Positions 20,661-63,262 of a stretch of 64,000 bases of DNA are shown here, one piece after another. The notes beneath the pieces were generated by a model. The model saw only the letters and a list, made by a program, of their open reading frames with translations, searched no databases and was not told the origin of the DNA. Every line of letters begins with the position of its first letter. Position 1 is the first letter of the stretch. The stretch spans positions 3,685,567 to 3,749,566 of the forward strand of contig MU053629.1 in NCBI GenBank assembly GCA_013239625.1. Reading direction: 5' to 3'. Made by a program: the position numbers and the translations under genes. Source of the DNA: Lama guanicoe (lineage: Eukaryota).

Positions 20661-25265
<4,605 letters not shown>

Positions 25266-60432: not shown

Positions 60433-60548
60433 TCAGCTCAGGCTCCGCAGCAGGAGCATCAGGAGAACCGCAGCGATCAGAATGCAGAGGGTGCAGACCG
60501 TGGGGACCACGATCTCCGTCACGATCTGCATGTAACTCAGCAGGGGCT
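60433..60548 (-). CDS. LCTL: Lactase-like protein (gamma-Klotho), last coding exon encoding the transmembrane helix; upstream exons lie beyond the window
   Basis: The acceptor TCTCTCCCCTCCGCAG is followed by (E)PLLSYMQIVTEIVVPTVCTLCILIAAVLLMLLLRSLS*. This matches the recalled LCTL C-terminus and the expected synteny next to ZWILCH. Confidence 0.9.
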
Positions 60549-60987: not shown

Positions 60988-61004
60988 TGTAATACCTGCT
61001 TTTA
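60988..61004. repeat. Target-site duplication, copy at the 3' end of the insert (TGTAATACCTGCTTTTA)
   Basis: Identical to 63246-63262. Confidence 0.93.
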
Positions 61005-63077
61005 TTTTATTTTTTAAATACTACGTAAATTTTAATCATGCACATACAATGCAAAAATATTTCCCTTTAATAAGCATTGTGAATATCTTACTTAACGGGA
61101 AGTAACGAAAATGTTTAACAGCGCAGCAGATAAATTTTTCGCATTTATTTTTTAGATCATATACTTCTTCAAAACCTTCACATATTCTTGACGTGCTTTC
61201 AAAACCAGATCTTGACTTAGACTTGACTCGTCCGTAGATCCAAGAGAAAGTCTGTAGGACTCAGAGTGGAGTTCAGTAGTAGCTTCTTTTACATCTCAGC
61301 TATATTATTTTCCAGCTTCTGCATCCTGAACAAGTAGTCGCCCGTGCTAGCTGAAGAAATCCTTTTGGGCTCTAAGCTATTATTAAAATTTTCAGCGGAA
61401 GGTGGCTGAAAATCCTTTTGGGCTCTAAGCTATTATTAAAATTTTCAGCGGAAGGTGGCCCGTCAACAGGCCTTGTAGGAACAGTGCTGATGGGAAAGAA
61501 CTCTTGTGCTGTTTCTCCATCTGAAGTTCAGTGTTCATCTCTGCCAGCCTCTTGTTAGCCGAGTTTTGCTGACTTGCCAATTGCGTTCTGTTTTCTAGCT
61601 CTTCCAGGTGCAGTTGTCTGTATTTTTCTAATTCTTTTTTGTTAGAATTGAACTGCAGAGGTTTACTTCTGGGGAGTTCAGATTCCAGATATTTAATTTT
61701 GTGTTCCATTTGACTTCCTGTTGAAGCATTTTTATTCTCTCTCAAGTTTTCTTGAGATGGTGCTTGTACCTGTAAAAACTGGCTGATTCCTTTCCATTTT
61801 TCTACTACGTCCTGTCTTGCTCGCTCTTCAGTCTCCCGTTTGTTCTGCTGCACTTGACTGCGTTCCACGGTATTCATTTCTAGGTGACATTTGAGGTTCA
61901 CTACTTCTTCCAACTTCTTTTTCTCCTCCTCTAGTTTTTCACATTTGTTTTGCATCTCTTGCATAGACAATAACTCCTTTAGAAGAAGTTGAGTTTCTGC
62001 ATTCAGATGGAAAAATACTGAAGATGTAGATTCCAGTTTTGCTATAAGATCAGCATTTTCATTTGCAGTTTGATGTAATTTCCTCTCTAAATCCTGTGTC
62101 TCATTTTCTAAAGGAGTCTGATGATGCGCTGTCACCTCCAGGGAGGCCTTCGACATGGGCTGTTTCTTTCGGGTGTCAGTCAGTCCTTGCTGAAGCTGTC
62201 TCACACAGGCCTGGCTCGGTTTATGCCTTAAGCTCTTCAGTTCGAATTCTAGTGCTCGGACTTGCTGTTTCAGGTGAACTTGTTCATTGTATTGTTTGTC
62301 TTTTCTTTTTAAGTCACCCTTTTTTTTCATAGACTATATCAGCAATTTTTTTTCTTTCCTGTTTCTTGTTTTAATGTGAATCTCACACTGCAGAGCTCTC
62401 GTTCCCACTCCACATTTTGACATTCTGTGAATTCATTTCCCTTGTTTCCAACAGCTCTTTTTGTAGCCTGTTAACTTTATTTTCCATTTTTAAAATTTTT
62501 TCTTCTAAGTAGTTCACAGTTGATTTCTTTAGGTTCTGTTAATCTTCTGAATAAATGAACTGCATCCTTAATTTTCAATAAGTTAACAGTCTTTACACTC
62601 CAGGCCAAGTTGTTTGATTAGCAACAGGATATTCTTATACTTCGAGTAAAGCGACTCGCAATCCTCGGAAGCTGTTTCCGGTGACAGAGTTAAGTCATCA
62701 GGGTCATCCACAGAACTAATCTGCTCTTTGACCTTGTCCTTTTTAGTAGATGTTTTCTTTTGAAGACCTGCCACGACCTTGATCTCCTTCACTTAAACTG
62801 CTGTTGTCATTCATGTGTAGGAGACCACCAGCCAGTGAGGCAGTCTTCGCAAATACACGTGAAGTCACAGATGCTTTTAATGTCCGTTTTCCACTTTCCT
62901 TCTTTACTTCCTTCATATGCAAGCTATCAGAATCTCCTTTCTGCAGAGCAGGAAACTGATGGTCATTAGTTTTTCCCCTCTTCCTCTGGTGAGTTAATCC
63001 TTTATCATAACTGCATCACACATGGTTTCTGATCCTTTCAGTTCACTACTTTTGTTCCTGTTCTCTTCTACTTCAAC
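61004..63077 (-). pseudogene. Intronless ANKRD26-like processed copy (C-terminal coiled-coil region, no ankyrin repeats) with frameshifts and stops; longest ORF 62330-61425 (301 aa)
   Basis: The peptides KVKEQISSVDDPDDLTLSPETASEDCESLYSKYKNILLLIKQLGLECKD, VRQLQQGLTDTRKKQPMSKASLEVT, ELEKYRQLHLEELE and the terminal LGSTDESSLSQDLVLKARQEYVKVLKKYMI* (stop 61154-61152) resemble ANKRD26. There are no introns, and an A-rich tail and TSD are present. Confidence 0.88.
61357..61459. repeat. Tandem duplication, 53-bp period (50 identical nt x2)
   Basis: AAATCCTTTTGGGCTCTAAGCTATTATTAAAATTTTCAGCGGAAGGTGGC occurs at 61357-61406 and 61410-61459. Confidence 0.95.
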
Positions 63078-63245
63078 CAGATTTTTGGTGTCTTTGTCTT
63101 CCAAAGAGGGTGATGTTCTTTCTGTCGGAGTTGGGCAGGTGCTCTGGTTGGCTGAGTGGGTCCGTAGATGTGAGTTTTGGTGTATTTGTGGGAGAGGGTG
63201 AGCTACGAGTGTCCTTCTACTTCGCCATCTTGCTTCCTTATCGTC
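63078..63245 (-). mobile_element. L1 5' UTR-like leader (168 nt) forming the 5' end of the ANKRD26-like retrocopy
   Basis: The minus strand reads GACGATAAGGAAGCAAGATGGCGAAGTAGAAGGACACTCGTAGCTCACCCTCTCCCACAAATACACC...AAAAATCTG. The YY1 motif CAAGATGGCG lies about 14 nt from the 5' end, as in full-length mammalian L1 starts (recalled, not searched). Confidence 0.75.
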
Positions 63246-63262
63246 TGTAATACCTGCTTTTA
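63246..63262. repeat. Target-site duplication, copy at the 5' end of the insert (TGTAATACCTGCTTTTA)
   Basis: Identical to 60988-61004. The minus strand reads CT/AAAAG, an L1 endonuclease-like site. Confidence 0.93.

Follow-up and report, generated by a model that had tools for sequence, protein, structure and literature searches.

L1-mediated processed pseudogenes are intronless copies of spliced RNAs that carry an A tail and a target-site duplication and whose reading frames have decayed; in the available sections of PMC5470649, the usual retrocopy ends at the gene's own 5′ end or at a random truncation. A second class, the SpIREs (spliced integrated retrotransposed elements), is generally dead on arrival: in the parts of PMC5860796 at hand, these elements use a donor early in the L1 5′ UTR, at +97, and an acceptor inside L1, are retroposed at full length and have lost most of the promoter. 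The mRNA/L1 chimeras of Law and Burns (bioRxiv 10.1101/2025.02.02.635956, abstract and passages), which include a cis-spliced pair involving RAP1GDS1, are single insertions by target-primed reverse transcription (TPRT) whose parts join at splice sites, with the gene at the 5′ end and L1 at the 3′ end. Splicing has also brought a gene exon and a retroelement together in one mobile RNA in SVA_F1 (MAST2) and in the chimpanzee STK40-SVA, where the gene exon forms the head and the composite has amplified, to 94 members in the chimpanzee subfamily (PMC6139936, excerpts). The ANKRD26/POTE genes, finally, form a fast-duplicating family with chimeric members, and POTE copies map to segmental duplications (PMC7073761, in part).

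Here we describe an insertion in a 64,000-nt stretch of Lama guanicoe DNA, the window, that shares features with each of these systems. Like L1-mediated processed pseudogenes it is an intronless copy with a tail, a target-site duplication and a decayed frame, but its 5′ end corresponds to the start of an L1 and not to a gene's 5′ end or a random truncation. Like SpIREs it appears to have used an early donor in the L1 5′ UTR, to have been retroposed at full length and to have lost most of the promoter; unlike them, its donor lies near +168 and its acceptor is a host exon, so that L1 beyond that point is replaced by gene exons and everything 3′ of 63078 is ANKRD26-like. It resembles the mRNA/L1 chimeras in being one TPRT insertion with a join at apparent splice sites, but here L1 occupies the 5′ side and the polyA end is supplied by the gene. 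As in SVA_F1 and STK40-SVA, a gene exon and a retroelement would have been spliced into one mobile RNA, but we see no amplification. Its parent family is the fast-duplicating one that includes POTE, whereas the present copy is RNA-derived and non-coding. The literature searched, openly accessible work with few subscription papers, contained no account of the present locus or of any ANKRD26 retrocopy with an L1 head.

We consider it probable that the insertion is a one-off processed pseudogene of a spliced ANKRD26-like transcript that had started in an L1. A first-pass annotation of this DNA had proposed that an L1 served as alternative first exon of an ANKRD26-like gene and that the product became a retroposon family; the L1 head, the donor-like site and the join to an exon start hold up, and the family does not.

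Structure of the insertion

By every feature tested the insertion is a processed pseudogene (Table 1): it has a target-site duplication, a polyA signal and tail and an endonuclease-type target, its introns are gone and its frame is disabled. The 17-bp direct repeat occurs twice within the 64-kb window, both times bordering the unit, and the chance of such a repeat in the areas searched is about 2e-6; the duplication would measure 16 bp if its first T is coincidental. The consensus target of the L1 endonuclease is TT/AAAA, and the empty target site reads CT/AAAA on the element's strand, which conforms to an endonuclease-type target (T/AAAA). The host exon downstream presumably is the last exon of LCTL, and a MAP2K1 exon early in the window agrees with the gene order around LCTL. 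Within the explanation proposed here, the insertion site would lie in an intron.

Table 1. Features of the insertion and its surroundings, in window positions; slashes within sequences mark joins.
Feature	Position	Strand	Size or detail	Basis
Whole insertion	61005-63245	minus (reads 63245 -> 61005)	2,241 nt	
Target-site duplication, 5′ copy	63246-63262	minus	17 bp, identical to 60988-61004	
Leader, matching an L1 5′ end	63078-63245	minus	168 nt	contig depth, homology
YY1 motif CAAGATGGC	63224-63232	minus	intact	sequence
Leader/exon junction	63076-63078	minus	63078/63077, 3-nt microhomology G/GT	sequence; repeat contigs
ANKRD26-like body	61005-63077	minus	intronless, broken, without ankyrin exons	alignment to P0014
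First captured ANKRD26-like exon (VEVEE ... GDSD)	62924-63077	minus		X18 record 20; protein models
217-codon skip NKPSQ/ACVRQ	62210-62211	minus		alignment; gene models
53-bp tandem duplication	61357-61459	minus		TRF; missing from orthologous X15/X18 contigs
PolyA signal ATTAAA	61031-61036	minus	15 nt ahead of A-rich tail	sequence
A-rich tail	61005-61015	minus	11 nt	sequence
Target-site duplication, 3′ copy	60988-61004	minus	partner of 63246-63262	
Host exon	60433-60548	minus	440 nt downstream of insertion, same strand	translation

The best 47 protein matches of the longest open frame in the insertion are all ANKRD26-like or CCDC144-like models, and 45 of them name Vicugna or Camelus. In a frameshift-aware alignment to the camelid protein P0014, 428 of 608 aligned residues are identical, and the body contains about 10 frameshifts together with a single in-frame stop. 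The alignment is continuous across the inferred exon joints, and the introns are therefore gone; at 62059-60 and 61768, DNA contigs of paralogues end and RNA contigs continue through. Relative to P0014 the body also has a 25-residue gap, where many paralogues carry an internal repeat, and the 217-codon skip. Each end of this skip (NKPNQ on the 5′ side, ACMRQ on the 3′ side) is a boundary in other camelid models, and the joint itself occurs in none of 156 proteins. Lying as it does between model splice sites, the skip supports a template RNA with unusual splicing. The 53-bp tandem duplication post-dates the insertion.

Two further details of the body may be recorded. A four-residue gap against P0014 at 62923 corresponds to exactly 12 nt that are missing, at 62924/62923, from the start of the exon following GDSD (where paralogues read SCPG); the parent may have used a shifted acceptor, or a small deletion may have removed them. 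The model P0128, fused to an enoyl-CoA hydratase domain according to precomputed domain annotation, was considered as a second inserted copy and rejected because it carries native upstream exons.

The leader

Depth and copy number were judged from the contigs of four of 24 public runs, X1 and X7 (DNA) and X15 and X18 (RNA), at a likeness setting of 80%; near 80% the sensitivity is patchy, contigs drop rare variants and a filter removes some records. In the leader bin (63124-63224) the summed contig depth reached 105,783 in X1 and 192,995 in X7 versus 13 and about 14 in the 3′ flank, a contrast of about four orders of magnitude, and it is this contrast alone that we use, summed contig depth being no copy number. 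Contigs leave the window at 63231-63236 (192 in X1, 191 in X7) into G-rich starts, and the starts of these leader-like repeats are preceded by A-rich flanks that differ from one another. By length, with loose ends at 63236, the leader begins no more than about 1 nt from the L1 start. It retains the YY1 motif that opens almost all mammalian L1s (PMC5381506, in the part available).

Homology points the same way. A pattern scan of metagenomes returned three loci, two of them chance matches (L001 and L003) and the third, L002, a mammalian L1 5′ end to which the leader is 78% similar over 67 nt (E 2e-10); L002 lies 75 nt from the end of its contig, and the sequence downstream is therefore unreadable. 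Compared by eye with the portion of PMC6501411 supplement 1 at hand, L002 resembles the 5′ end of pig L1A1, and the leader is also similar to pig L1D1. On this sequence evidence the leader is assigned to the 5′ start of an L1, with the link to the L1 open reading frames drawn from the pig consensus labels, since the camelid contigs seen stop short of ORF1. Among the L1 contigs listed, the longest diverge from the leader at 12-16% of positions. A search of the window for a second leader copy found none, the best other match being 19 nt.

The first nine nucleotides of the leader (63237-63245) are unlike the G-rich starts of other repeat copies; they may have been taken over from the source locus, or added without a template.

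The junction

At 63078/63077 the minus strand reads ...AAAAATCTG/GTTGAAGTAGAAGAG; re-reading it places the junction, and a leader of 168 nt from 63245 to 63078, where the first-pass annotation had them. On the L1 side, at least nine X7 repeat contigs match through 63076 and continue with AGGAG, giving CTG/GTAGGA (agreement 0.89), a donor-like continuation that comes, among the pieces listed, from nine contigs of this one DNA run. Single long L1 pieces in X7 and X15 also depart at 63076 and 63075, and pig L1A1 has a comparable GAG/GTAGGA near +161 (PMC6501411, in part). The donor-like motif that the first-pass annotation gave for cetartiodactyl L1 5′ UTRs is accordingly found in camelid repeat contigs, at the junction itself.

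The exon side was examined in 74 camelid models. VEVEE-type words occur 30 times in them, behind six unrelated types of preceding peptide, whereas seven control motifs have one to four types each; conversely, the exon that usually precedes VEVEE is followed by VEVEE, VKEQ, DKC/DTC/DKY or VCEN, depending on the model. In addition, an RNA contig, X18 record 20, lies with all 152 of its letters on 62924-63077 and ends exactly at the junction, with bounds like those of a single exon. That an ANKRD26/POTE-family exon begins here (given as VEEE in the first-pass annotation) agrees with the six peptide types and this contig; the exon start is supported by predicted gene models and one contig, and the acceptor is a predicted one.

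We therefore read the junction as a donor-like L1 site apparently joined to an exon start. The first-pass annotation had named a missing GT in L1, or a join away from an exon boundary, as grounds for preferring template switching to splicing, and neither is what we find: GT continues in other L1 copies, and the join falls at an exon boundary. It had missed that G/GT is common to both sides of the junction, L1 and exon, which leaves the exact breakpoint ambiguous over 3 nt; G/GT is the usual context of a splice junction.

Searches for other traces of the join were negative within their scope. No contig bridges the junction among the pieces listed in the four runs, the locus's own contigs included; no six-residue word from the leader's three frames occurs in any of the 156 proteins; and the exon start has no match in viral contigs. 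Two candidates were set aside. X1 record 8 (63061-63232) might have been a second junction-spanning copy, but it extends only 17 nt beyond the junction before 68 loose letters; we interpret it as an L1 in which the purine-rich sequence that follows matches by chance. A frame through leader and exon had 15 protein matches, and those inspected carry native ANKRD26-like upstream peptides.

Origin of the junction

An L1 5′ end, a donor-like site and an exon start together make it probable that the template was an RNA spliced from L1 into an ANKRD26-like gene. Donors in L1 are spliced to host exons that lie downstream of them, and we regard cis-splicing as the likely source of the junction. Taking as observed the L1 head, the donor-like site, the exon-start join, the loss of introns, the target-site duplication and the tail, together with the single-copy depth, the frameshifts and the presence in a second lineage described below, we envision the following scenario. 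A sense L1 in an intron of one camelid ANKRD26-like paralogue would have been transcribed from its own +1, and a donor at about +168 of its 5′ UTR would have been joined to the host exon that came next (VEVEE). Further splicing of this RNA would have produced, among other joints, the 217-codon skip from one splice site to another, and polyadenylation would have used the signal of the gene itself. L1 proteins would then have made a full-length copy in the present intron by TPRT, and this copy would have decayed in place. On this reading the locus is a fossil trace of a probable splice, in the camelid germ line, from an L1 5′ UTR donor near +168 into an ANKRD26-like gene, and it suggests that L1-headed gene transcripts can be retroposed at full length.

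The rival that survives best, although we judge it unlikely, is a template switch, or a joining of RNAs, during reverse transcription: the enzyme would have started at the tail of a spliced ANKRD26-like mRNA and switched at a GGT match to an L1 RNA, a course that would likewise leave a single dead insertion finished at the L1 5′ end. Such a jump is consistent with the 3-nt microhomology at the junction, with the purine-rich sequence on either side of it and with a head that ends at the L1 start, as expected from a full L1 RNA template, but it requires a donor-like L1 site and a gene exon start to coincide, and the junction is not unrelated to splice sites. This coincidence is less decisive than it appears, because, of the ten other GGT words in the body, three coincide with inferred exon joints; a switch guided by microhomology could therefore meet an exon start in perhaps one case out of three. 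The divergence of 12-16% between the leader and the longest L1 contigs listed also speaks against a switch, and the odd first nine nucleotides weakly favour an aged genomic L1 over fresh L1 RNA.

In trans-splicing, an L1 RNA of other origin would have given its 5′ exon to an acceptor in an ANKRD26-like pre-mRNA, and a single retroposition of the product would have followed. The same junction is predicted, and this route has been proposed for mirror-image human mRNA/L1 chimeras (bioRxiv 10.1101/2025.02.02.635956, in the abstract and passages available), whose gene-first order the L1-first, gene-second order seen here reverses. However, the cis route is simpler given the many intron-bearing paralogues and the thousands of L1 5′ ends; we consider trans-splicing very unlikely.

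Copy number

The first-pass annotation had gone further and proposed a gene-carrying, non-autonomous retroposon family that brings along its own piece of L1 promoter and is mobilised again, with many dispersed copies. If true, a self-promoting family of this kind would matter far more than a single insertion, but the evidence points the other way. In favour of a family, the copy extends in full to the L1 start with its YY1 motif intact, a few diverged sisters could exist beyond the contig pieces listed, and splice-made composites such as the SVA subfamilies have arisen elsewhere (PMC6139936, excerpts). Both DNA runs, however, indicate a single copy, the very finding that the annotation had said would refute a family. 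The locus's own contigs inside the element have depths of 8.9-12.6 in X1 (no differences) and 12.3-18.5 in X7 (0-1 differences), compared with flank depths of 13 and 14.1.

Of 426 sites, 40 were listed with their individual depths, and 38 of the 40 lie inside the element. Total depth is at flank level at nine of these (61122, 61161, 61290, 61569, 61745, 61768, 62059, 62060 and 62215) and also at 62758, with 8.9-13 in X1 and 14-18.5 in X7, and the ten include sites 1-10 nt from four inferred joints (61769, 62057, 62210 and 62768). At 28 of the 38 element sites listed, X1 depth is well above single copy; most of the other sites listed are several to tens of times deeper, mainly with other letters. 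Body pieces listed that do not belong to the locus are 163-311 nt long, about 88% alike, and stop short of the inferred joints. We infer that the excess depth in the body comes from exons of many intron-containing paralogues.

TPRT begins at the 3′ end, and every sister copy must therefore include 61005-61300, where depth at 61122, 61161 and 61290 is at flank level in both DNA runs. Longer sisters would have to span exon joints, and the four joints are at flank depth too. No long sister contig is present among the longest pieces listed, and neither the skip joint nor a leader peptide is found in the 156 proteins. No second copy was found in which mutations shared among daughters could be compared, the similar X15 and X18 contigs representing the same site in another lineage. 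With no detectable daughters, the family reading is very probably wrong, and equally improbable is a small, old family, beyond the contig pieces listed, made up of a few ANKRD26-like retrocopies with L1 heads of which some derive from others.

Comparison with other L1 5′ UTRs points in the same direction. In a reporter assay, a human L1 5′ UTR from which splicing at +97 had removed sequence reached about 7-fold activity versus 267-fold for the full UTR (PMC5860796, in part), and pig L1 5′ UTRs measure 551-3,254 nt (PMC6501411, in part), of which 168 nt is a small part. The leader has 5 CpG in 167 nt and no CpG island. In the RNA runs, the copy's contigs have similar depths in flanks and body (15.6, 10.8, 6.3 and 8.9 in X15; 15, 30.8 and 11 in X18). 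Because contig depth neither ranks expression nor rules out DNA as the source, these values are compatible both with leader-driven RNA and with its absence. The locus agrees with the view of spliced L1 heads as dead on arrival.

It is possible, though on balance doubtful, that the source L1 still serves as an alternative first exon in a living paralogue and gives an ankyrin-less coiled-coil protein from the Met of the VEVEE exon. Among the camelid models, P0044 and P0045 start at the VEVEE-exon Met or at that of the next exon, as they would with a non-coding first exon; P0044, an alpaca model that begins inside the VEVEE exon, is a lead for an L1-first-exon isoform.

Age and decay

Fourteen DNA-type runs under five organism labels contain 79-88% of the sampled words. 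Contigs from X15 and X18 connect each flank to the element and so derive from the same insertion site; in X15 the orthologous contigs have 72 differences in 2,279 nt (3.2%). Frameshifts near 62758 and 61491 are, by depth subtraction, common to X15 and X18. Because the site and these frameshifts are shared with a lineage that is about 3% diverged, both the insertion and its decay predate the split, and a divergence of about 3% would fit the split of the two camelid tribes. About 10 frameshifts and presence in a second lineage mark the copy as old and dead. As a character common to two camelid lineages the insertion can serve as a marker, and the 53-bp duplication (61357-61459), present in the window and absent from the X15/X18 lineage, is a lineage marker.

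Additional observations

The camelid ANKRD26-like family is large, with many models both with and without ankyrin repeats (P0001-P0047 and P0121-P0146). In DNA, ANKRD26-like exon bins mostly have 7 to 40 times the flank depth, and very deep contigs of ANKRD26-like paralogues occur in X15, a reproductive-tract RNA run. Some models carry a fused extra domain: P0001-P0003 have PF00041 at their N-terminus, and P0128 has the enoyl-CoA hydratase domain at its C-terminus; these could be patchwork duplications or model errors.

The public metagenome contig that contains L002 runs out, at 2580-2730, into DNA of a mammalian host, namely an L1A 5′ end of the pig type. Elsewhere in the window, the exon at 20702-20894, which we take to be the last exon of RPL4, contains a KKPAAD repeat with an 18-bp unit in 5.5 copies, a number that may vary among species.
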